A stretch of DNA of 64,000 bases. Origin: Flavobacteriales bacterium. GTDB lineage: Bacteria > Bacteroidota > Bacteroidia > UBA10329. The notes under the pieces are model-generated. The model was not told the DNA's origin. It saw nothing but the letters and a program-made list of their open reading frames with translations, and made no database searches. The stretch is from positions 4,242 to 68,241 of the forward strand of contig WGMW01000004.1 in NCBI GenBank assembly GCA_016124845.1, written 5' to 3'. The position numbers and the translations under genes are program-made. Positions 40,330-51,474 of this stretch are shown piece after piece (the stretch's first letter is position 1; every line of letters starts with the position of its first letter).

Positions 40330-40632
40330 TTAGAAATGTCTTGGCAGATCACGGCTTCCATGCAGCACGCGAACAATTCTGACGTGGTCTGCGAGGATGC
40401 GATAGAACACGACATGCGAGCCCGAAGGAAAACTCCGCAGACCTTTCTTTATCTCATTCCTTTCCCTGCCGAGTTCGGGATTGCCCACCAATTGATAGAA
40501 GACGGTATCAAGTTCCGTCAGATACTCAACGGCCTGATCCGTTCCGAATTCCTCTTCCGTATAGATGAATATTTCTTCCAGGTCTTCATCCGCTGGAAGA
40601 GAAATTTCAAAATGTCCTTTTTTGCTGAACAT
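40330..40632 (-). CDS. parE: type II toxin-antitoxin system RelE/ParE family toxin
   Basis: Start at the internal Met MFSKKGHFEI (the track ORF extends to 40680). ParE-like fold; lies directly downstream of the parD-like gene. Confidence 0.78.
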   Translation of the reverse strand: MFSKKGHFEISLPADEDLEEIFIYTEEEFGTDQAVEYLTELDTVFYQLVGNPELGRERNEIKKGLRSFPSGSHVVFYRILADHVRIVRVLHGSRDLPRHF

Positions 40633-40645
40633 GCTACGAACCTGA

Positions 40646-40867
40646 CTAACGGGTTCGGGTCTTGATAATATCCTTGACACTGCGCTTGCTTGCTGGCCCA
40701 GACCATCCTTTCTCGATTTCCTTTCTCAGATCCTCGATCATACGGTTTCTCAGGGCCTCATGCAGTCTGAGCGCATCGCGCACTACCTCGCTGGCATTCT
40801 GAAAATCGCCCGATTTGATCTGCTCAGCGATGTACTTTTCCTGCTTTTCCGTGAAACTGACGTTCAT
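40646..40867 (-). CDS. parD: type II toxin-antitoxin system ParD family antitoxin (ribbon-helix-helix)
   Basis: 73 aa. MNVSFTEKQEKYIAEQIKSGDFQNASEVVRDALRLHE matches the ParD/CopG consensus. Confidence 0.8.
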   Translation of the reverse strand: MNVSFTEKQEKYIAEQIKSGDFQNASEVVRDALRLHEALRNRMIEDLRKEIEKGWSGPASKRSVKDIIKTRTR

Positions 40868-41031: not shown

Positions 41032-43077
41032 TTGACCGCATACAAACGACATCTGATCACAGCCGCACTGCCATACGCCAACGGCCCCATCCATTTGGGT
41101 CACTTGGCAGGCGCTTACCTGCCATCCGACATTTACGTTCGGTATATGCGTTTGAAGGGTGAAGATGTGCTTTTCGTGTGTGGTTCGGATGAGCACGGAG
41201 CGGCCATTACCATCAAGGCCAAAAAAGAAGGAATTACGCCACAGGAAGTAGTTGACCGCTACGATGCGATCATCCGAAAATCCTTTGCCGATTTTGGAAT
41301 TGATTTCGACATCTATCATCGAACGTCCTCGAAGTTGCATCACGAAACGGCTTCCAACTACTTTTTGGAACTGCTGGAAAAAGATGCGTTCACCGTTCAG
41401 GAAAGCGAGCAGTATTTTGATGAGGAGGCGCAGCAGTTCCTGGCCGACCGATACATCACAGGAACGTGTCCGAAATGTGGCCACGATTCCGCATTTGGTG
41501 ATCAATGCGAGAATTGCGGAAGTGCGTTGAGCCCAACAGAGCTCATCGACCCGAAATCAACACTTAGTGGCAGTAAACCCGTTTTGAAAACCACCAAGCA
41601 CTGGTACTTGCCCATGCAGGACCACGAACAATGGTTGAAGGAATGGATCAACCAGGGAACGCTCGAAGGCAAGCAGCATCACAACCCCAAAGAGTGGAAA
41701 AACCACGTGGTCGGACAGTGCAATTCATGGATCGATGGTGGATTGCAACCGCGCGCCATGACACGCGACCTCGATTGGGGTGTCCGCGTTCCAGTTGAAG
41801 GTGCTGAAGGGAAAGTGCTTTACGTTTGGTTGGATGCACCCATAGGTTACATCAGTGCCACCAAGCAGTGGGCGCTCGACAATGGCAAGAACTGGGAAAC
41901 GTACTGGAAAGACGAGGAAACGCGTTTGGTGCATTTCATCGGCAAGGACAATATTGTTTTCCATTGCATCATCTTCCCCATTTTGCTGAAAGCACATGGC
42001 GAGTTCGTTCTGCCAAATAATGTTCCCGCCAACGAGTTCTTGAATCTGGAAGGACAGAAGCTTTCCACTTCGCGCAACTGGGCAGTTTGGTTGCATGAGT
42101 ACTTGGAGGAATATCCAGACAGGATTGACGCGTTGCGTTATTGTATCACTTCTATTCTTCCAGAAAACAAGGACAGCGAGTTCACGTGGGCTGATTATCA
42201 GGCACGGAACAATAACGAGTTGGTGGCCATTCTGGGCAACTTCGTGAACCGTGCCGTGGTGCTTACGCACAAGTACTTTGAAGGAAAAGTTCCCACTTCT
42301 GACTTCGACCAAGATGTGTTGGATGAAGTGAAAACCCACTACGGTAAGGTTTCGGAGAATTTAGACAAGTTCAATTTTCGTCAGGCATTGAGCGAAGCCA
42401 TGAACGTGTCTCGTATCGGCAATAAATATCTGGCCGATAACGAACCTTGGAAGACAATCAAAATAGACGAAGCTGCGGCTAAAAAGGTCATTGCAACCTC
42501 ACTGGCGATTGCCGAGCATTTAAAGAATTTGATTGCTCCATTCTTGCCAAACACTTCCGAAAAACTTGCTCAAATCCTTAATGTTTCAGCACCGAATTGG
42601 AATGCGGAAAGCACCATCACCGAAGATCATCAATTGAACAAGGCCGAACTGCTTTTCACCAAGTTTGAGGATGAAGAGGTTGAGAAGCAAGTGAATAAGC
42701 TGAAGGAAGCTTCGGCAGCGGCCAAACCAATTGAGCTGGAGCCTGCCAAACCGGAAACCACCTTCGATGTTTTCCAAAAACTCGACATCCGCATAGCGAC
42801 CATACTTGAAGCTGAAAAAGTGGCGAAAACCAAAAAGCTGCTCAAACTGAAAGTGGATACGGGTTCTGATCAACGTACCGTTGTTTCCGGAATTGCAGAA
42901 TTCTACTCGCCCGAAGAAATTATCGGAAAACAGGTCTGTCTGTTGGCCAACCTCGCCCCACGCGACATCAAAGGCATTACCAGCCAAGGCATGATCCTGA
43001 TGGCAGAAAGTCCTGATGGAAAACTGTCTTTTTTGCTTCCGAGCCAAGCGGTAGCCAATGGCTCATCCATAAGTTAG
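41032..43077 (+). CDS. metG: methionine--tRNA ligase
   Basis: [12 protein letters not shown] (HIGH) motif, KMSKS region, zinc knuckle CPKCG...CENCG, and a C-terminal tRNA-binding domain. TTG start per the track. Confidence 0.95.
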
Positions 43078-43109
43078 AAGGGGTTATTTTTGCCCCGCCT
43101 TTCGGCAAT

Positions 43110-43151
43110 GGCCTCGTAGTTCAATGGATAGAATAGAAGTTTCCTAAACTT
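43110..43151 (+). repeat. 42-nt duplicate of the 5' portion (acceptor to anticodon stem) of tRNA-Arg(CCT); left attachment-site repeat of the integrated element
   Basis: GGCCTCGTAGTTCAATGGATAGAATAGAAGTTTCCTAAACTT is 41/42 identical to 49678-49719 in the intact tRNA. Confidence 0.75.
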
Positions 43152-43298
43152 GGTCAATATAACACATTGATTTTCAAATAAGTAAGCAAGTTTTTATCGA
43201 GCTTATTGTCAAACATTTAAGGTACCGCTCTTTTATGTTTACGCAGCTAGAAAATAATTGAAATCGGATCACGCATAGCGTGATCCGATTCATCACAT

Positions 43299-43784
43299 TT
43301 ACTCTTCAATGACAATGACATCATTGAATGTTGTACTGAATTGCTCAACCTGATGGGTTGGAACTATGACCACGATTCTTTCAGCGCCTAGCGCATGAGC
43401 AACACTCAATCGATGTTTGCCGTCATGAACCCAAATCTTGTTAGGCATTGGATGGGCTTGGAAATGCTTGTCTCTAAACAGCACCATAGGTGGTGTTAGT
43501 GGAACAGCCTCTTCCCATTCCAAAAGAATCTCGCATAGGGTTTCTCGGATTTGGTCACGTCTAAAAAGATGTGGTTCCCTCACGATTGGGGCGTACAATT
43601 CATCAAAGTGCTGTACCAAGTCGTCCATTGGAACTTCAATTATTGATAGCCCTTCTGGAATGATTCGTTGTACAGGTGCGTTGATGTGTTCATCGATGTC
43701 ATCAATGTCATTGAACGACCTGTGAAAAATTGGTTCAACCTGAGCAAAATGCCCATGGTTAAATAGTCTAATTACTTCTTCCAT
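43299..43784 (-). CDS. ParB/sulfiredoxin-fold (ParB-like nuclease domain) protein
   Basis: 161 aa. ...IWVHDGKHRLSVAHALGAERIVVIV resembles the ParB N-terminal (V/I)DGHHR...A motif region. Confidence 0.45.
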   Translation of the reverse strand: MEEVIRLFNHGHFAQVEPIFHRSFNDIDDIDEHINAPVQRIIPEGLSIIEVPMDDLVQHFDELYAPIVREPHLFRRDQIRETLCEILLEWEEAVPLTPPMVLFRDKHFQAHPMPNKIWVHDGKHRLSVAHALGAERIVVIVPTHQVEQFSTTFNDVIVIEE

Positions 43785-44119
43785 TGCTTTGAAGATTTCG
43801 TTTATAAAGTATCTCGGAACCAGTGTCCCTTGATACTATTAGAAGGAAATGTCAAAATGTTTCACCTATGCTGAAGAAATTCAAGAAGCCCCATTCCGCT
43901 TGACAGGAACTCCCAAGCGCAAAAAACCAATACAATCGCTAAAACCACCAAGCTGTAAACGAGAATTGCCTTACCTAGTTCGTCCTGTTGACCGTCATTC
44001 ATTGGGTTAAACCGTATCAAACGTGCTGGTGTATCAAAAAATCCTTGAGACAGGAAAGATACAGCGAGCTAGAGCGTATCTCGTTTATTCTTTTGAAACT
44101 CCTGATACACCTTTTAACC

Positions 44120-44497
44120 TTACTCTATACCTTTTCGAAATCTTGCTAACGCGTACCCGATTATACTTCCAAATAATGTTCCTAGCGTACAGTCGGTAAT
44201 GTTCTCGGTATATCCAAGAATGCATATTGGTATTACCACAGCCAGAATAGTTGCTAAATCGAACGCGTACTTCCACCACTTGGGATTAAACAGGTCGGCA
44301 AGGGATTTGCCTATTTGTCCGAATACAGGTGTGACCTTTTCTATTATCTCGGCAAGCTGTAGTTGTTTGGCTTGTTCCTCAAGTACTGAGGTCATTTGAG
44401 TAACCTGCTGCTTCAGTCCTTGATTCTCTTTGGTTAACTGTTCAATGATGTCTTCTGGTCGTGCTTCTGGTTGATGTTCCTGTTCTTCTTTGCTCAT
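44120..44497 (-). CDS. hypothetical coiled-coil protein with a C-terminal transmembrane segment
   Basis: 125-aa ORF inside the element. Confidence 0.4.
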   Translation of the reverse strand: MSKEEQEHQPEARPEDIIEQLTKENQGLKQQVTQMTSVLEEQAKQLQLAEIIEKVTPVFGQIGKSLADLFNPKWWKYAFDLATILAVVIPICILGYTENITDCTLGTLFGSIIGYALARFRKGIE

Positions 44498-44603
44498 GGT
44501 GGGGAGAATTATTTAGAAGTCCGTGATTGCAACCATCGTGCCACTAAGAAGCCAAGAATACAATAGTTTTTGAATTTGTAATAAAATTAGTTACATTAGT
44601 ACC

Positions 44604-45242
44604 ATGAAAGAAAAAGCAATAATCATATCAAGGTGTTCTACTAATGAGAACCGTCAGGATGTAACCCGTCAGTCAGAGGAACTACGGTCTAAGTATGGGC
44701 AATCGTATACTCTGGTCAAAGAATTCAGCTACTACCAATCAGGTACTAAGAATGACCAGGTGAATGATGAGATATTGGAATACGCCATTGCCAATGATGT
44801 TAAGCATATCATCGCACTCGAAATTTCACGGATTTCTCGTAAGATTTCATCGTTTGCCCTCTTCCTAGAAAATTGCAATTCTCGCCACATCAACATAATC
44901 ATAGATAACTTCGGTATGCACACCTTGCTTCCAGATGGAACGCAGAACGCCTTAATTCAGAGTACGCTTAGTATCGCGAGTGCCTTTAGTTCAATGGAGC
45001 TATCGTTGATAAAATCGAGATTGGACAGTGGACGGGAAAAATATATCCGTGATGGTGGTAAACTGGGGCGTAAGGTAGGTTCGACCGAAAGCGATGCCAC
45101 AACCCTCCAAAAACATTCGGACGTGGTAAAATACTTGAGACAACGGCAATCGGTTCGCATCACTATGAAACTCACAGGAAAAAGTAGTGGTACGGTTCAG
45201 AAGGTAAAACGAATTCTTTCAAGCACGAAGAAAGCCGCGTAA
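44604..45242 (+). CDS. serine recombinase (resolvase/invertase family) with a C-terminal HTH
   Basis: N-terminal IISRCSTNENRQD (catalytic Ser context) and a C-terminal helix-turn-helix. Confidence 0.8.
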   Translation: MKEKAIIISRCSTNENRQDVTRQSEELRSKYGQSYTLVKEFSYYQSGTKNDQVNDEILEYAIANDVKHIIALEISRISRKISSFALFLENCNSRHINIIIDNFGMHTLLPDGTQNALIQSTLSIASAFSSMELSLIKSRLDSGREKYIRDGGKLGRKVGSTESDATTLQKHSDVVKYLRQRQSVRITMKLTGKSSGTVQKVKRILSSTKKAA

Positions 45243-45257
45243 TTCACGCGGCTTTCT
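45228..45257. repeat. palindromic hairpin AAGCCGCGT-AATT-CACGCGGCTT (element-internal hairpin family, copy 1; bidirectional terminator)
   Basis: Overlaps the recombinase stop. Near-identical to the copies at 45737-45764 and 46377-46408. Confidence 0.5.
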
Positions 45258-45277
45258 TATAAGCCAAATGCTTCTGT

Positions 45278-45712
45278 TCACTTGGAACGCCTAGATTCCA
45301 CTCCCTCCTTAAATCCCTTGCAATAGCAGGGCGTTGGATTTATAAGTGAGTTGGCTGATTGATTGTGTCTCTGAACATAACTATGACAGCAACTGCTACA
45401 GTCACTACCCATATCAGAAACCATCTGACCAGCCGCAAAGCCTCGGTCATAGTCTGCTGGTCTACTACTACAATCTATGGCTTTTGGGGAATCACCACCA
45501 GTCAATTCAGCAAACCCAATCACCACCACAAGTGTTAAACACAACGTTATATACATGGAAGCCAGTAGTATCGACATCCTTCCCTTAGTAAATGCCTCCC
45601 ATACACCTACTTTCGCTATGTGCCCTTGATTCTCTCTATAGAACTTCTGAAGCAAATAAATGCTGTAAAGCAGCAGCAGAAGAAAGATTCCATTTATCAC
45701 CCAAACCATCAT
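45278..45712 (-). CDS. hypothetical membrane protein
   Basis: 144 aa with 3 hydrophobic segments. Inside the element. Confidence 0.4.
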   Translation of the reverse strand: MMVWVINGIFLLLLLYSIYLLQKFYRENQGHIAKVGVWEAFTKGRMSILLASMYITLCLTLVVVIGFAELTGGDSPKAIDCSSRPADYDRGFAAGQMVSDMGSDCSSCCHSYVQRHNQSANSLINPTPCYCKGFKEGVESRRSK

Positions 45713-45736
45713 TAAATCTAAGGATTACAATTGGAG

Positions 45737-45764
45737 GGAAAGCCGCGTGATCACGCGGCTTTCT
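45737..45764. repeat. perfect palindrome GGAAAGCCGCGTGATCACGCGGCTTTCC (hairpin family copy 2)
   Basis: Seen directly in sequence, between two minus-strand element genes. Confidence 0.5.
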
Positions 45765-45778
45765 CCATTAATATTTGT

Positions 45779-46021
45779 TCAATCACATGAACAGGTGGTT
45801 TGTGCATCACCAAGTTCGTTTTCCACCCAGTCTGTCCATTCTTCGGCATCATCAAACAGTGGGTTATTATCGGAAATGTCTTCCCAGCAAACGCCTTGTT
45901 CATAATTGGCGTAAATCGGAGTGTTCACATCTGAACATTGACAACATGGGTTTGAATTCTGACTGCATGATACAAGCAGAAGTGAGACAACCAGTAGAGG
46001 TAATGCATTGATTCTTTTCAT
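45779..46021 (-). CDS. hypothetical Cys-rich small lipoprotein
   Basis: 80 aa. Lipobox LLVSC, multiple Cys residues, acidic C-terminus. Confidence 0.4.
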   Translation of the reverse strand: MKRINALPLLVVSLLLVSCSQNSNPCCQCSDVNTPIYANYEQGVCWEDISDNNPLFDDAEEWTDWVENELGDAQTTCSCD

Positions 46022-46118
46022 GTGTTGTGATTTGGATTAATAGTTCCCCGTAAACATATAAAAATAGGTTCACATGTGAACCTATTGGGTCGAGGTCTCA
46101 TTTGCACCTTTCCAGTTC

Positions 46119-46346
46119 ATGGAATCTGAACGGGAAGTAACATTTCGAACGGCATTTGGGGAGCGTGTGAGACGTTTACGAATTGAAAAGGGGCTAAGCC
46201 AATACCAACTGGCGGACATTAGCAATCTGGACAGGTCAACCATCAAAAGAGTGGAAGCTGGCACAATAAACACCACTTTGGAAACCGCAAAGGCTATTGC
46301 CGAGGCTCTCGGAATGACACTAAGCGAGTTGGTTGACCTTGGTTAA
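46119..46346 (+). CDS. XRE family helix-turn-helix transcriptional regulator
   Basis: 75 aa. RLRIEKGLSQYQLADISNLDRSTIKRVE matches the Cro/C1-type HTH. Confidence 0.75.
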   Translation: MESEREVTFRTAFGERVRRLRIEKGLSQYQLADISNLDRSTIKRVEAGTINTTLETAKAIAEALGMTLSELVDLG

Positions 46347-46376
46347 TTGCATGGTATAAATCATTATCGGTATGAA

Positions 46377-46408
46377 GGAAAGAGCCGCGTGATCACGCGG
46401 CTCTTTCC
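46377..46408. repeat. palindrome GGAAAGAGCCGCGTGATCACGCGGCTCTTTCC (hairpin family copy 3)
   Basis: Seen directly in sequence, downstream of the XRE gene. Confidence 0.5.
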
Positions 46409-46759
46409 TCTTATTAAATCTCTAGTTGTTGCTGAATCTGTCCTATTTCTTTCCGCAGCTTTAGAATCATCAACTGTTTGCGGTATCGTTCTTTCTTAGC
46501 TAAATCGGTTTCCACCTCCACTTTTTTCTCGGCAACCGCTATTCTGCTGTCTATGTCATCTGTCATATCACTTCCTCTTCAATTGTCCTCCACGATGCGG
46601 AGGTTATTCGTCAAATTCATCATAGCGAACACGTGTTCATATCTCCCCTTTTTGGTACAGATTTTCCAAAAAATTTGCGAGGCACATGACCCGTGTTTTG
46701 TACATGATTTACATTCATCACCGATGAGTTAGGTTACGTAGTCCCCGGTCCCCTCCCCG

Positions 46760-46963
46760 TCAATCGTAGGCAGGGGGGTGTAGTGTAAACTCAATTTGTT
46801 GGTAAAGCTCACGTAAAACTTTCTTCCGTTTCTCTGGTATCTGTTTCAACCATGCGTATGACCCTGTGGCAGTTTTTGCCTCTTCCAAGTCCCTGAACAA
46901 CCTTGGATAACCATATTGTAAGACGGCTTGGTCAAATATGTCTAATTCGTAATTCTCACTCAT
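46760..46963 (-). CDS. hypothetical small protein
   Basis: 67-aa ORF overlapping the upstream gene by 8 nt, inside the element. Confidence 0.35.
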   Translation of the reverse strand: MSENYELDIFDQAVLQYGYPRLFRDLEEAKTATGSYAWLKQIPEKRKKVLRELYQQIEFTLHPPAYD

Positions 46964-47492
46964 AATCTTTCGTTTTAATAGTGGTTATGGAGACCCCCGT
47001 TTTGGTGATGTATTCTATCCATCGTTCCAAGTCGTGAACCTCTTGCTGGTAATAGTTCATTTCTGAAAATGCCGTTTTCAATAGTTGTACAAACTGATTT
47101 CGGTCTTCTGCTTTGTAGTAGGCATGAATGTGATTATGCTTGTTTACCAAGCCCTGCTCGATGGTGTAGTGGATTTCCACGTCCTTGTATCCCATTCCTC
47201 TTACTGCGTACCCGATAAGCTCGTGTATGTCACTTTCGCTAATCGGTGTGTTTGGGTCTATCGTTAACGAATAATACCCTGATGACCTTGGCAACTTACG
47301 TTTTCGCTTTCGTTGCCTCTTGAATACAGGTATTAGCATGTCGTGTATTCTCCATCCGTTCATGCCATCCTTGTATAGTACAGTTTCTGGTTTGGTCTCA
47401 GATAATTGTGCTGCAATCTTCCTTACTTGTCTCACACTGAGGTCTGTTTTCTCTGCTACCTCTTGAGTTGTGTATTCTTCCTTTCTAATCAT
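46956..47492 (-). CDS. hypothetical DNA-binding protein with N-terminal HTH and a possible HUH-type (H-I-H) motif; candidate replication/mobilisation or excision protein
   Basis: 178 aa. TQEVAEKTDLSVRQVRKIAAQL is HTH-like. Also a basic KRQRKRKRK linker and a C-terminal ...KHNHIHAYY motif. Confidence 0.45.
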   Translation of the reverse strand: MIRKEEYTTQEVAEKTDLSVRQVRKIAAQLSETKPETVLYKDGMNGWRIHDMLIPVFKRQRKRKRKLPRSSGYYSLTIDPNTPISESDIHELIGYAVRGMGYKDVEIHYTIEQGLVNKHNHIHAYYKAEDRNQFVQLLKTAFSEMNYYQQEVHDLERWIEYITKTGVSITTIKTKDYE

Positions 47493-47912
47493 TCTTTAAT
47501 CTTTAATTAAGTCCATGTCACACCCTAGTCGGAGTATCATTTGACCTCTAGCGTGACTTGGTTATTTATATATAAATAGGACGGTCTTAGTCAAAAGACC
47601 GATGTCGGACTGAAAAAGTCTGCCGAGACTTAATTAACCGAATATTTCAAGTACAAACCGTAACATTTGGTCAGTCTTGTGGTGACGTTTTGGACGCCTG
47701 AAAATGTGGTTTTAGAGCGTAACCATAATTTTAGATGGATAACCATCAACGCTTCTGATGAATCGGCAACTGGCTTAGGTTACGACTACCAGTTATTCAG
47801 GAGAAACAACAAACCGTTCGGTTCTAAAGCAAACATATCACGGATTTTTGACACTTTCCACAATTTGGATGAATTCGGGTGAAATTTGTTATGGATTGTA
47901 CCGCATTTCTAT

Positions 47913-49598
47913 TCACAAATCGAATTGGTCTCCCAGTGCTTTCAATACACTATCCGTTCGACCATCGTTAAACCCTGTCTTAAGATATGCATCTGTGACA
48001 CCCAATGAAGAATGTGCCATTGCTTTAGAAACATCCATGGTTGAAGCACCAGAATTCATCATAATGTTTGCAAAAGAAGTCCTTGGTAAATGAGTGCTGA
48101 ACGTCCTATCGATTCCAATGTGCTTCTGTAACTGCTTCAGGTGGCGATTGTAAACAATACCAGCTTTGGTGACTTTTAGGTACTGCTGTTCGTCTATGAT
48201 GGAGAAATCGTTCTGCTTACCAACGTTGGCAAAGTCCGAATCTTTAAGCATTCCAAAAACGAATCTAGTGGAGGTTCGTTCGTTTGTTGCGAACTCATTA
48301 ATAACGCCAACGCTATTATCAAAATGAATCCTGTTGAGTTCGGCTATTCGGGTTTTTATTTGCGTGACGAGGCTCTTGTAGAATAGCTCATAGTTCGCAT
48401 AGAGAGAGCTAAAGTCAAACTTGTATAAAGAATACGTGATACGTCCTTCTGATTCAACAAACTTACAAAGACAGCCCAGTTCTGTCTTTAGTTCTTCCAA
48501 TGTCATAGACATGATGACCTTTGCTGAATGCAACCAATACGACTTGTCAATAGCTACGCTAAGTGGCACATTTCCAATCAATTCATCTGGAAACCCATAC
48601 GGTGGTGTCGGTAACATGCCATATTGCATTTGTTGTAAAAGCCGTAGCCGTTCTTGTTGGAGTGCACTAACATCAGCCTGAGCCTCTATCGGAGCATTTA
48701 CATCCACTTCAAGCCCCAGCAGCCGCTTTAATAAATCCAAAATGATGTCCGTAATAGCAATATCGACAATCGCATTGGTTTTGAACATATTATAGACGAT
48801 TCTACCATTATGAAGATTTCCATACCTCAGAGTAACGAGGTCTGACACCCTCATTCCACCTGTGAAGAACTGAAATAGAAATAGGTCGCGAGCCTTAGAT
48901 AAGCGAGGAATATCAATTTTAGAATCTATAAGTTTAGTTATGTCATCTCGGTACAAACTTTCCTTCCTTTTCGGTTGTTTACGCCCATAATCATATGAAT
49001 AGAAAGGGTTGTTCCCAACAATCACGCTTTTGTCCTTTTTCGCGTGACCATAGATAACCTGTAATATTTTGAGATAATGAGTGGCAGTATTGGATTCCAT
49101 GCCCCCCTTCTTCATATAGAACCGAAATTGGTCTAAGAAATCTTGGGTCAACTCGGAGAACAACAAATCCGTCTTGCTCTCCGATGCCAAGAACTTCTTT
49201 AGTTTTTTGTACACGGTCTGAAGTTTTATTCGCGTACCCGTTTTATCCTTCAGCTTCGCACTGTTCAAATACCCTTGGTAAAACGCTAGAAATGATGCCT
49301 TACTGTTGGCACCATCGTATGTGTCGAACGACCTACCATCAGCCAACACCACCGAAAGGTGCTGCTCAATAGTGTCGTTGTATCCCTGGTAATCAATTTT
49401 AACCGACTTCTTGACCCTTTGTTTGACCTTATCCCAGTACTTAATGTCTAATGGAGGCAGTTTTAATGACCTTACACTGCTTTTGCGGTTTTCAACTCGC
49501 TGAAGGAACAAGTAGCCAAGAGTGTCATCTTTACTAATTTTGCGAAATATGACCTTGATACTTGAACTCATCAGTTTTGTCGAACAATTGTCAAACAA
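47913..49598 (-). CDS. tyrosine-type site-specific integrase
   Basis: 561 aa with the C-terminal catalytic region (...HLPRTSFANIMMNSGASTMDVSKAMAHSSLGVTDAYL, R...H.R.Y context). Lies adjacent to the tRNA-Arg attachment site. Confidence 0.9.
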   Translation of the reverse strand: MFDNCSTKLMSSSIKVIFRKISKDDTLGYLFLQRVENRKSSVRSLKLPPLDIKYWDKVKQRVKKSVKIDYQGYNDTIEQHLSVVLADGRSFDTYDGANSKASFLAFYQGYLNSAKLKDKTGTRIKLQTVYKKLKKFLASESKTDLLFSELTQDFLDQFRFYMKKGGMESNTATHYLKILQVIYGHAKKDKSVIVGNNPFYSYDYGRKQPKRKESLYRDDITKLIDSKIDIPRLSKARDLFLFQFFTGGMRVSDLVTLRYGNLHNGRIVYNMFKTNAIVDIAITDIILDLLKRLLGLEVDVNAPIEAQADVSALQQERLRLLQQMQYGMLPTPPYGFPDELIGNVPLSVAIDKSYWLHSAKVIMSMTLEELKTELGCLCKFVESEGRITYSLYKFDFSSLYANYELFYKSLVTQIKTRIAELNRIHFDNSVGVINEFATNERTSTRFVFGMLKDSDFANVGKQNDFSIIDEQQYLKVTKAGIVYNRHLKQLQKHIGIDRTFSTHLPRTSFANIMMNSGASTMDVSKAMAHSSLGVTDAYLKTGFNDGRTDSVLKALGDQFDL

Positions 49599-49677
49599 AG
49601 CTAGTATGTTCTACAAAAAATGAAGAATGTTTGATAATCAATAATCATATAAACTACTGATATTCAGTAGGTATAAT

Positions 49678-49752
49678 GGCTTCGTAGTTCAATGGATAGA
49701 ATAGAAGTTTCCTAAACTTTTGATACAGGTTCGATTCCTGTCGAGGCTACCA
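49678..49752 (+). tRNA. tRNA-Arg (anticodon CCT), with encoded CCA
   Basis: Cloverleaf readable by hand: acceptor GGCTTCG/CGAGGCT (two G-U pairs), D arm GTTC-AATGGATA-GAAT, anticodon arm GAAGT-TTCCTAA-ACTTT, T arm ACAGG-TTCGATT-CCTGT, then ACCA. Confidence 0.85.
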
Positions 49753-49758
49753 ACCAAT

Positions 49759-51474
49759 CTACATTTTCTCCGCCCACTCCAAACCATCAGGCAATTCGGA
49801 GGACGAAAACTCCAAGTGCAGCACCCTTCTCGGTTTCTGTTTCGCTGAGCGATTGGAAGAGTGAAGCAACAACGGCTTCATCAGCAACACGCCTCCTGCC
49901 GAAATTTCGCAATCGTACGGAATGCTGTTTTCTGTGATGGTTTTTATCTCATCCGTTGATAGAATTTTATTGTGACTTCCCGGCATTACGCGCAAACATC
50001 CATTCTCCCGGTCCGCATCATCTAAATGAACTCGAATGGTGAAGACGTTGCGATTGATCTCGACCGGTGGCAGCACGCTGATGACATCATCGCGCTCGGC
50101 CCAGCCAGTGAATCCTTCAACCTCCGCTTTTTGCTTCACATGAATGGTTCTATCCTGATGCCAACCTACCGACCAATTGGCACTCGGTTGCTTGTTCATG
50201 TAAATGGCTTTTACCAAAAACGCCTTCGGGTCGACAGACGATACCACGCGCTGCAAATTCTTGTTGAACAACATCGGCTTGAGCTCAGGAATGGCCTCGA
50301 GCAAGCCCCGCTTCACATAATTCTGATTGCTCTCCGCGTCAAACGCCTTTTCCAACAATCGGTTCATCTGCTTGATGGCGCGCTGGGAATACACATGATT
50401 CAGAATTCCGAAACCCTTGTGTTTCATCTTTCGCGAAGCACTGATCAACCCCTTTTCATTCAGATCGGTATTATAGAGGTCAATAGCCCCTTCCAATCTA
50501 TCGCGTATGCTTCTTTTGAGTCGCTCCGGTTTAATGACCATCAAGCCATCTCCAAAGGCCAAAAGTTCTTTCTCCAACTCAAAATTGTGCTGAACATGAA
50601 TTCTGAATGTCATGCCGTAATGGTCTCTCTCCAGCAGCTGTTGTGACCAGTGCAACGGTTTCGTCATCACGTATGGCGCATGCGTGTGATTCACGAAAAA
50701 ATCAACCTCCATCGGCTTTAAAGATGGACTGACCGAAACCCCGATCGCATCTCTGAAATAATCTTCGGCATTGAAATCAGGCCTATCCCAATAGACAGCA
50801 TCTGAATACTCGATCTGAATTATTCTGTCCAAGGCTGGAGTCATAAGTTGCGCCTGTCTGCCCTTGGCTCCGATGAGAAACCAACGGTTTCGGAACTCCT
50901 TCAACAGATACGGATGAAACTCGAATGTCTGCGGATGACGTGCCTTGAATGATTGGTACGTAAGCCGAATGACGTGCTTTTTGATGATGGCCTGATACAG
51001 CGGCTCCAAGAAATCCAACCCTTTCAGGTTCTCATTCTTTTCCATATCGATCACCGGTTTCTGATGCGTTTTCTGCGCGTAAACGTGGTCTTCGAGCTTC
51101 TGCACCATCGCATCCAATTCCTTGAAGTGCGAAAACCCTTTGAACTCCTTCAGAAACTCCACGGTCTCCATCAAACGACCAAGGTCTTGGTCAGTAATTG
51201 GAATGTTGGTGATACTGTAATCGCGGTCTTCGTAGGTGTAATACTTCTTATCGGTGACAACAATGGGCGCATTGTACCCCAACTTATCGCTGCGCATCAT
51301 CTGAATATCACCCTGCACCGTTCTCCGGCTCACGCCTTTGTCAATGCCTTCATATTCATACAACGCATCCGAAACGGCATCAATCAGATCTTCCAATGTC
51401 CATTGGCGATAATGGTTCTGCAAACACTTATCAATGGTCTTGTAGCGAATAAGCGCGTTCCGATTTACAGGCAT
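49759..51474 (-). CDS. WYL-domain transcriptional regulator fused to a C-terminal phytanoyl-CoA dioxygenase (PhyH)-like Fe(II)/2-oxoglutarate dioxygenase domain
   Basis: N-terminal HTH (NRNALIRYKTIDKCL), WYL-like core (RLTYQSFKARHPQTFEFHPYLLKEFRNRWFLIGAKG), then ~200 aa with PhyH-like motifs (WHQDRT..., ENGCLRVMPGSH, RRVLHLEF). Confidence 0.7.
   Translation of the reverse strand: MPVNRNALIRYKTIDKCLQNHYRQWTLEDLIDAVSDALYEYEGIDKGVSRRTVQGDIQMMRSDKLGYNAPIVVTDKKYYTYEDRDYSITNIPITDQDLGRLMETVEFLKEFKGFSHFKELDAMVQKLEDHVYAQKTHQKPVIDMEKNENLKGLDFLEPLYQAIIKKHVIRLTYQSFKARHPQTFEFHPYLLKEFRNRWFLIGAKGRQAQLMTPALDRIIQIEYSDAVYWDRPDFNAEDYFRDAIGVSVSPSLKPMEVDFFVNHTHAPYVMTKPLHWSQQLLERDHYGMTFRIHVQHNFELEKELLAFGDGLMVIKPERLKRSIRDRLEGAIDLYNTDLNEKGLISASRKMKHKGFGILNHVYSQRAIKQMNRLLEKAFDAESNQNYVKRGLLEAIPELKPMLFNKNLQRVVSSVDPKAFLVKAIYMNKQPSANWSVGWHQDRTIHVKQKAEVEGFTGWAERDDVISVLPPVEINRNVFTIRVHLDDADRENGCLRVMPGSHNKILSTDEIKTITENSIPYDCEISAGGVLLMKPLLLHSSNRSAKQKPRRVLHLEFSSSELPDGLEWAEKM

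Follow-up and report, generated by a model that had tools for sequence, protein, structure and literature searches.

A probable integrative element in a Flavobacteriales tRNA-Arg(CCT) gene that carries the 5′ part of its target

Bacterial tRNA genes that are rebuilt when an element integrates into them keep their own promoter, with very few exceptions (PMC8371274), and every tabulated tRNA-targeting integrative mobilisable element (IME) uses the 3′ end of its target (PMC5704250). Among archaeal integrases, only the pTN3-like ones use the 5′ half of the gene, and a similar case is described as 'seldomly encountered in bacteria' (PMC8371274); in pTN3 itself 41 bp are shared, the tRNA is cut off from its promoter, and integration splits the integrase gene (int), within which the attachment site attP is located (Cossu et al. 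2017, PMC5495485). Here we describe a bacterial locus of this kind in a 64-kb stretch of contig WGMW01000004.1 from a Flavobacteriales bacterium, the whole of which is called the window. With a probability of roughly 0.85, segment 43152-49719 of the window is a 6,568-bp integrative element in tRNA-Arg(CCT). An earlier reading of the letters alone, the sequence-only reading, had presented the duplication of the 5′ part as unusual; because use of the 5′ half has been described (PMC8371274), the arrangement is of a rare, previously documented kind and is not unprecedented.

An anticodon-loop class of tRNA-targeting islands is attributed to Williams (2002), as cited in PMC8371274 and PMC4383910, and its examples include mycobacteriophage L5-type phages and, in Bacteroidota, NBU1, NBU2 and Tn6031 (PMC5704250). 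Related mycobacteriophage integrases that use one attB differ in the extent of the tRNA carried by attP, which shows that the identity block evolves faster than the choice of site (PMC10865867). The filters of the island finder Islander permit a 5′ fragment upstream of the tRNA (PMC4383910). In Riemerella anatipestifer, the repeat of the 10K island is 53 bp long and corresponds to the extreme 3′ end of an Arg-tRNA plus downstream sequence (PMC6764341).

Boundaries of the element and the empty site

The features that define the locus are as follows; in the text, names of the form L### denote loci of relatives and P#### relative proteins.

41032-43077, + strand: metG (methionine-tRNA ligase), the left chromosomal flank; 100% identical to P0040, the MetG of a Flavobacteriales metagenome-assembled genome
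43107-43151, + strand: attL core, AAT plus tRNA positions 1-42 with C at position 4; displaced chromosomal 5′ fragment
49675-49719, + strand: attR core, AAT plus tRNA positions 1-42 with T at position 4; element-derived copy
49678-49752, + strand: chimeric tRNA-Arg(CCT), 5′ part from the element and 3′ part from the chromosome, with a U4-G69 wobble

Five tRNA genes are present in the window, among them the intact tRNA-Arg(CCT) at 49678-49752 (+), called by ARAGORN and matched by Rfam with 65 bits over model positions 1-71. A repeat search of the window returned a 45-nt direct repeat (43107-43151 and 49675-49719; 98% identical, spacing 6,568) that consists of AAT and tRNA-Arg(CCT) positions 1-42, thereby extending by three nucleotides the 42-nt duplicate, mismatched at position 4, that had been noticed from the letters alone. 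The sole mismatch is C at 43113 against T at 49681, which is tRNA position 4. A 45-nt repeat with one mismatch within 13 kb is far beyond chance. Past tRNA position 42 the left copy continues into non-tRNA sequence (GGTCAATATAAC…), so the copy at 43110 is no second gene but a truncated fragment, as the sequence-only reading had held. The possibility of a second full tRNA at 43110 was rejected, since neither ARAGORN nor Rfam calls a tRNA there. The bounds fit the Islander rule of an intact tRNA with a same-orientation 5′ fragment upstream (PMC4383910), and GC content is 0.40-0.45 between the repeats (43000-50000) versus about 0.47-0.51 in the flanks.

The classical, 3′-restoring polarity is absent: the repeat covers tRNA positions 1-42, and BLAST of the tRNA against the window found no 3′ fragment of tRNA-Arg(CCT). 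A classical element to the right of the tRNA was considered and rejected on the same BLAST result.

Six relatives (L035-L040), whose MetG is 87% identical, show the empty arrangement that had been anticipated from the sequence, namely metG, 32 nt and an intact tRNA-Arg(CCT), with no integrase. The sequence upstream of the tRNA is the same as in the window (TTATTTTTGC…GGCAAT|GGCC). Because these relatives hold the whole tRNA at this position, the fragment at 43110 is the original 5′ end still in place, and the 3′ part of the tRNA has been moved 6.6 kb away by the insertion. In L033 (MetG 93% identical) an extra radical-SAM gene precedes the tRNA and the contig also ends inside it; an exact-sequence look-up of the window MetG matched no record. 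At a further locus, L034 (13610-14400; MetG 86% identical), tRNA-Arg(CCT) is followed by a P′ arm (two copies of TTGTAGAACA) and a resolvase gene, with no integrase called in the next 8 kb and no tRNA core motif downstream in the orientation of the tRNA; L034 may be a decayed classical element.

Integrase, attachment sites and polarity in the integrase family

Recombination at this site would involve the integrase gene that abuts the rebuilt tRNA head-to-head, and short repeated sites near both junctions.

47913-49571, - strand: tyrosine integrase; 552 aa when counted from the ATG at 49571, with an open reading frame (ORF) that extends to a TTG at 49598
49577-49637, no strand assigned: P arm, with direct decamers TTGTCGAACA (49577) and TTGTCAAACA (49588) at 11 bp spacing, between the int start codon and the tRNA
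43206-43215, + strand: P′ arm-type decamer TTGTCAAACA, 55 nt right of the attL core; putative integrase-binding site

The integrase is 100% identical to P0001 and matches PF13102 SAM_5 (1.1e-16) and PF00589 Phage_integrase (1.8e-15), the latter in two pieces, the catalytic domain being split by an insertion of about 180 aa (residues ~290-475). In an alignment of 26 family members the residues R241, K264, H494, R497, H520 and Y529 are invariant. The insertion is found in all family members of 545-590 aa, and the deeper-branching L006 integrase (419 aa) is correspondingly shorter.

The decamer TTGTCRAACA has exactly three matches in the 64 kb (43206, 49577 and 49588), all within about 130 nt of the junctions, and inverted copies with one mismatch stand in the P arm at 49607 and 49628. 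As predicted from these sites, the arrangement is that of a lambda-type attP. Joining 49560-49719 to 43152-43260 gives a predicted attP of about 270 bp, comprising the P arm, AAT plus tRNA 1-42 and the P′ arm, with a junction that reads …GGTATAATGGCTTCG…CCTAAACTT|GGTCAATATAAC…. Analogous P′ sites are present in L027, L034, L046 and L047, and each relative repeats its own decamer at the same places (TTGTAGAACA, TTGGAGAACA, TTGCTGAACA, ACGACAACA, TTTGGGGGA, GTGGAACA). In most family members short palindromes also lie 10-40 nt on either side of the att core, at 49654-49670 and 43168-43178 in the window and likewise in L026-L029, L034 and L046; their forms include CTGATATTCAG, TGATAATCA and TTGATTTTCAA, and they are possible sites for accessory factors.

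The integrase family itself is a small and undescribed one from Bacteroidota. A protein search returned only 39 relatives, none of them specifically named, and about 30 loci were collected from genome and metagenome scans plus exact look-ups; IMG/VR, PLSDB and a phage collection held no members. At all 14 loci with enough flanking sequence int stands head-to-head with tRNA-Arg(CCT) or its 3′ part, which answers the question of target specificity that the first reading had raised. Two types can be told apart. In the 5′-types a complete tRNA adjoins the P arm, and for this reason the 5′ part is taken to be borne by the element; they comprise the window, L047, L028 (integrase 75% identical), L026 (52%), L046 (38%) and L003-L006, which are shorter and deeper-branching and in which the tRNA is followed by chromosomal DNA (in L005 and L006 no distal end was found within 10 kb of int). 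In the 3′-types the tRNA from about position 20 to its 3′ end adjoins the P arm and is preceded by non-tRNA filler; these are L027, L029/L030 (52%), L010, L001/L011/L012/L013 and L002/L015/L041. L027 occupies the same metG site: its left end reads metG, complete tRNA, P′ arm and its far end int, P arm, tRNA 3′ fragment, so that both ends of a classical element are visible.

Besides the window, two complete 5′-type elements were found. L046 is 10.4 kb long, with a perfect 34-nt repeat equal to tRNA positions 1-34 and a full tRNA adjoining int. L047, from another sample, is 94% identical to window positions 44568-49712, and its contig ends on both sides in tRNA 5′ sequence, on the left with positions 10-39 followed by the P′ arm and on the right with AATGGCTTCG… up to position 35. 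The L047 copy on the element side reads GGCTTCG and thus has the same T at position 4 as the window, which indicates that T4 is inherited with the element; the working tRNA is therefore chimeric, with U4-G69 instead of C4-G69, in agreement with the earlier suggestion that the functional tRNA is partly element-encoded. Acceptor-stem G-U wobbles also occur in the candidate chimeric tRNAs next to int in L003 (G2-U71), L004 (U6-G67), L005 (G7-U66) and L006 (U4-G69), as would be expected if the 5′ and 3′ strands differ in origin.

Identity to the tRNA stops at position 39 in L047 and at position 34 in L046, and in the 3′-types it begins at about positions 19-22. These limits support a crossover to the right of position 4 and to the left of about position 39, in the anticodon stem-loop, in line with the placement between acceptor stem and anticodon loop proposed from the window sequence; the exact exchange would lie within the anticodon loop. 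Because the identity of the 3′-types starts at about position 19-22, the core shared by all types consists of the 3′ strand of the D stem and the anticodon arm, which is the classical anticodon-loop sublocation.

It could be argued that the fragment at 43110 has nothing to do with the segment to its right, being a partial tRNA duplication or the leftover of an earlier element, and tandem or remnant structures do occur in the family (L007, L008). We regard this as highly improbable: the same decamer flanks both junctions, the drop in GC falls exactly between the repeats, the same gene set is flanked in L047 by tRNA 5′ sequence at either end, the pattern recurs in L046 with a sequence of its own, and the position of the fragment is exactly that of the whole tRNA in relatives. 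As to the two loci themselves, L007 (3342-3770) and L008 (6310-6762) have an extra tRNA 5′ fragment (positions 1-31) between int and the full tRNA, followed by about 200 nt whose arm-like sites belong to another family member (GTGGNACA, shared with L010), an arrangement that looks like a tandem insertion beside a stripped-down remnant.

The two types are interleaved in the integrase tree (neighbour-joining, 200 bootstraps). The clade of the window, L028, L026 and L029 is recovered in 200/200 bootstraps, as is a clade made up entirely of 3′-types (L027, the L001 group and the L002 group); whatever the root, the 3′-type L029 thus falls within a 5′-type clade. Overall, at least two changes of polarity are required. 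L014 (544-800) has a whole intact tRNA-Arg(CCT) between its P and P′ arms and represents an intermediate state. L016/L017, with an integrase 88% identical to that of L014, have the same layout, but their 5′ part is decayed. P arm and anticodon loop are a similar distance apart in 5′- and 3′-types, and where the former have the tRNA 5′ part the latter have sequence with a vestigial similarity to it. Taken together, the sequences can be read as attP sites with a whole tRNA that lose one half or the other. What is new here is that 5′ polarity is a trait of a family in which whole-tRNA attP sites and a circular form also exist, and that, to judge from the tree and the att sites, polarity switches within one integrase family at the same site.

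Gene content, mobility and expression of the rebuilt tRNA

The remaining genes between the attachment sites are listed from left to right.

43299-43784, - strand: 161-aa cargo protein in the variable left-end cargo region, from the ORF list
44120-44497, - strand: 125-aa cargo protein with a coiled coil and a C-terminal membrane segment
44604-45242, + strand: small serine recombinase of the resolvase/invertase type, 212 aa (Pfam Resolvase, 1.3e-13; PHROG DNA invertase)
45278-45712, - strand: 144-aa predicted membrane protein from the ORF list, without family matches
45779-46021, - strand: 80-aa predicted lipoprotein, with the lipobox LLVSC in its translation
46119-46346, + strand: XRE-family helix-turn-helix (HTH) regulator, 75 aa (Pfam HTH_3, 7.4e-16), divergently oriented
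46414-46566, - strand: 50-aa conserved small ORF, with a 50-aa ORF at the same place in L028
46760-46963, - strand: 67-aa conserved small ORF that overlaps the end of the HUH gene; an ORF of equal length in L047, no family match
46956-47492, - strand: 178-aa HTH-HUH protein, with an HTH at the N terminus and a probable nuclease domain of the Rep-type HUH class

This inventory agrees with the sequence-only reading for the integrase, the serine recombinase, the XRE regulator and the membrane and lipoproteins. A label of 'ParB/Srx-like' for the 161-aa protein was not confirmed, as the protein has no sequence match in Pfam, PHROG, PADLOC or PDB and its single-sequence AlphaFold model is unusable (pLDDT 51). 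The protein with an HTH and a proposed H-I-H motif does have the HTH, while the second part is better described, from motifs and a structural model, as a probable Rep-type HUH nuclease than as an H-I-H protein. In the alignment its motifs LTIDP, NHIHAY and YITKT follow the order typical of Rep-type HUH nucleases. The AlphaFold model (pLDDT 72) has as its top Foldseek match in PDB the viral Rep endonuclease domain 9pqf (E 2.5e-3, TM-score 0.61, normalised by the target); the next matches are the Rep proteins of PCV2, WDV and TYLCV, all weak and none at E<=0.001. The Pfam Relaxase match reaches 22.3 bits, under the cut-off of 24.6.

Resolvase genes are also present in L027, L034, L046, L047 and L017, and the position of the XRE gene is kept in L026, L028 and L047. 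The left end is the part that varies. Window region 43152-44567 is replaced in L047 (5234-8153) by a 426-aa PIN_4 protein and a 513-aa ABC ATPase that matches AriA, GajA and AbiLi models, a candidate defence pair, and in L046 this position is taken by two type II DNA methylases together with a BpuJI-like nuclease. The left, P′ end would thus be a swappable cargo bay that in relatives often holds defence genes. Two near-identical perfect palindromes (AGCCGCGTGATCACGCGGCT, at 45741-45766 and 46377-46402, 610 nt apart) surround the lipoprotein and XRE genes; one of them scores as a terminator, and they could instead be protein-binding or nicking sites.

Neither genes for conjugation or a type IV secretion system (ORFs, Pfam) nor an origin of transfer (oriT) were identified in the 6.6-kb element. 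Because no conjugation genes fit in 6.6 kb, the size class is that of an integrative, possibly mobilisable or replicative element rather than an integrative conjugative element, as had been surmised. Virion and packaging genes are absent as well, the PHROGs matches in the element being limited to integrase, invertase and regulator. A prophage or phage satellite was considered and rejected: there is no capsid, terminase or primase gene, and there are no relatives in IMG/VR or the phage collection.

Outside the element, the gene to the right of the tRNA (49759-51474, - strand) codes for a 571-aa protein in which WYL/WCX domains are fused to a PhyH dioxygenase domain (Pfam). Upstream of metG, at 40330-40867 on the - strand, overlapping ORFs of 116 and 73 aa look, by eye from their translations, like a ParE/RelE-type toxin and a ribbon-helix-helix antitoxin.

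The course of events that we propose is the following. A lambda-like tyrosine integrase would have inserted the element into the anticodon stem-loop of tRNA-Arg(CCT), 32 nt after metG, by means of an attP that carried the int start, the P arm (TTGTCRAACA twice in direct and twice in inverted orientation), AAT plus tRNA 1-42 and the P′ arm TTGTCAAACA. At attL, recombination would have stranded the 5′ fragment of the chromosomal gene along with what is presumably the native promoter; at attR, it would have fused the 5′ part from the element to the chromosomal 3′ part, giving an intact chimeric tRNA with the int-tRNA intergenic DNA as its upstream region and an element-borne promoter for its transcription. 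Excision would use one of the small conserved ORFs, of which the 67-aa ORF is a candidate excisionase or accessory protein and the 50-aa ORF a candidate accessory or excision factor, and the HTH-HUH Rep-like protein would replicate or mobilise the excised circle.

The consensus of the Bacteroidota -7 promoter box is TAnnTTTG, and one such box precedes the displaced fragment:

43085-43092, + strand: TATTTTTG, matching TAnnTTTG; the same box stands in the same place in the empty site L035

This is probably the native promoter of the tRNA, which in the window now lies ahead of the 5′ fragment only. Upstream of the rebuilt tRNA we found no convincing promoter, the only sigma-70-like match (49610-49638) being no better than shuffled sequences, and no clean TAnnTTTG box was seen there; because of this the rebuilt tRNA could be poorly expressed. 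Integration might even silence tRNA-Arg(CCT), in that the attR copy would be promoterless, its 5′ part would be only a substrate for recombination, and another tRNA, e.g. tRNA-Arg(UCU), would read AGG by wobble. The lack of an above-chance promoter speaks for silencing, as do the retention of the native -7-like box with the attL fragment and the dispensability of the CCU isoacceptor, which is plausible from wobble decoding. We nevertheless consider silencing unlikely. The divergent 5′-types (window, L026, L028, L046, L003-L006) all keep a complete 5′ part, with the full 5′ strand of the acceptor stem and a D arm, and pairing of the acceptor strand from the element with the host 3′ strand is preserved, G-U wobbles being the only departures. 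Recombination needs no more than the anticodon-arm core, since the 3′-types lack the 5′ strands of the acceptor and D stems, and the conservation of positions 1-20 thus argues for selection on tRNA function and, as far as sequence can tell, for use of the rebuilt tRNA.

A further step would be to suppose that the 5′-types, which supply a new upstream region and roughly the first 35-42 nt in place of the original promoter and 5′ part, bring the AGG-decoding tRNA-Arg(CCU) under the control of the divergent region of the element that holds the int start and the arm sites, so that the decoding of a rare codon would follow the state of the element. We hold this to be distinctly unlikely. If true, switches of polarity by way of a whole-tRNA attP would reflect selection on who controls the tRNA.

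The promoter results weigh against our reading of a mobile element that rebuilds a working tRNA, and so do several others. No empty site was found in the same species: the same-species contigs L031 and L032, reached via the downstream WYL-PhyH gene, end 29-30 nt into the repeat, inside the tRNA, which makes occupied and empty states unreadable, and in k=31 assemblies such breaks say nothing specific. In the closest empty-site relative, other genes follow on the right of the tRNA. There is no evidence from reads or assemblies that the window copy is excised, Pfam and PHROG recognised no excisionase among the element proteins, and the Rep/relaxase label combines motifs with a sub-threshold Pfam match and weak Foldseek E-values.

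Some of these points would equally suit a real element that is now a fixed, immobile remnant whose integrase no longer excises it: there is no direct excision evidence for the window copy, an empty site would not be visible in the same-species contigs, which break off at the repeat, and no excisionase was recognised. Yet the repeat is identical at 44/45 positions, all catalytic residues and all ORFs are intact, and a 94%-identical element with different cargo is present in another sample (L047), which suggests recent spread and exchange of modules. One family member, moreover, exists as a circle. L017 (1-10752) has a 127-nt terminal overlap, and L016 (1-10495), from another assembly, is a circular permutation of it; the resulting 10.6-kb circle is of the 3′-type and carries attP, int, resolvase and a complete type I restriction-modification system (hsdR, hsdS, hsdM). 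Some members of the family thus exist as circles, and the L016/L017 circle is no evidence for the window copy. Overall, a fixed remnant appears quite improbable, and an intact integrative element remains our preferred interpretation.

Comparison with known systems

That elements carry the 3′ part of a tRNA is usually explained by the promoter, which the rebuilt gene thereby retains; this family breaks the rule as a family trait, at the very site where sister elements obey it. It also provides a natural series of attP sites, from 5′-only (window, L046, L047) through whole-tRNA (L014) and degenerate-5′ (L016/L017) to 3′-only (L027, L029), in which the evolution of the attP identity block can be tested at a fixed site and att geometry, together with the cost of replacing a promoter. 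Island finders that seek only 3′ fragments would miss the 5′-type elements. More broadly, the elements are compact carriers of swappable cargo (restriction-modification, a defence-like ATPase) in uncultured aquatic Bacteroidota.

Like classical tRNA islands and IMEs, the window element has a tyrosine integrase, arm-type sites and a crossover in a symmetric tRNA stem-loop; its attP rebuilds the gene, an intact tRNA and a displaced fragment form its bounds, and it is small and free of conjugation genes. Unlike them, it carries the 5′ part and cuts the rebuilt gene off from its own promoter, and its integrase belongs to an unnamed family with an insertion of ~180 aa in the catalytic domain. The Riemerella anatipestifer 10K island differs in lying downstream of the tRNA and in its integrase (1,356-bp coding sequence).

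With the tRNA-dependent lysogeny phages (Fionnbharth etc.) the family shares related integrases that use one tRNA attB with differing extents of tRNA in attP. In Fionnbharth-type phages the core measures about 10 bp, the tRNA is not rebuilt and a complete tRNA gene is carried separately, whereas in the window a 42-nt 5′ block rebuilds the tRNA. Dependence of this kind was considered for the window and rejected, as the tRNA is rebuilt and no other tRNA lies inside the element.

Another parallel is found in the pTN3-like (SSV-type) elements of Thermococcales, in which the 5′ half of a tRNA likewise serves as attB and a full tRNA is rebuilt, separated from its promoter. The window element differs from them in that its int is an uninterrupted 552-aa ORF when integrated, its attP is intergenic with lambda-like arms, its host is bacterial and the sequences are unrelated.

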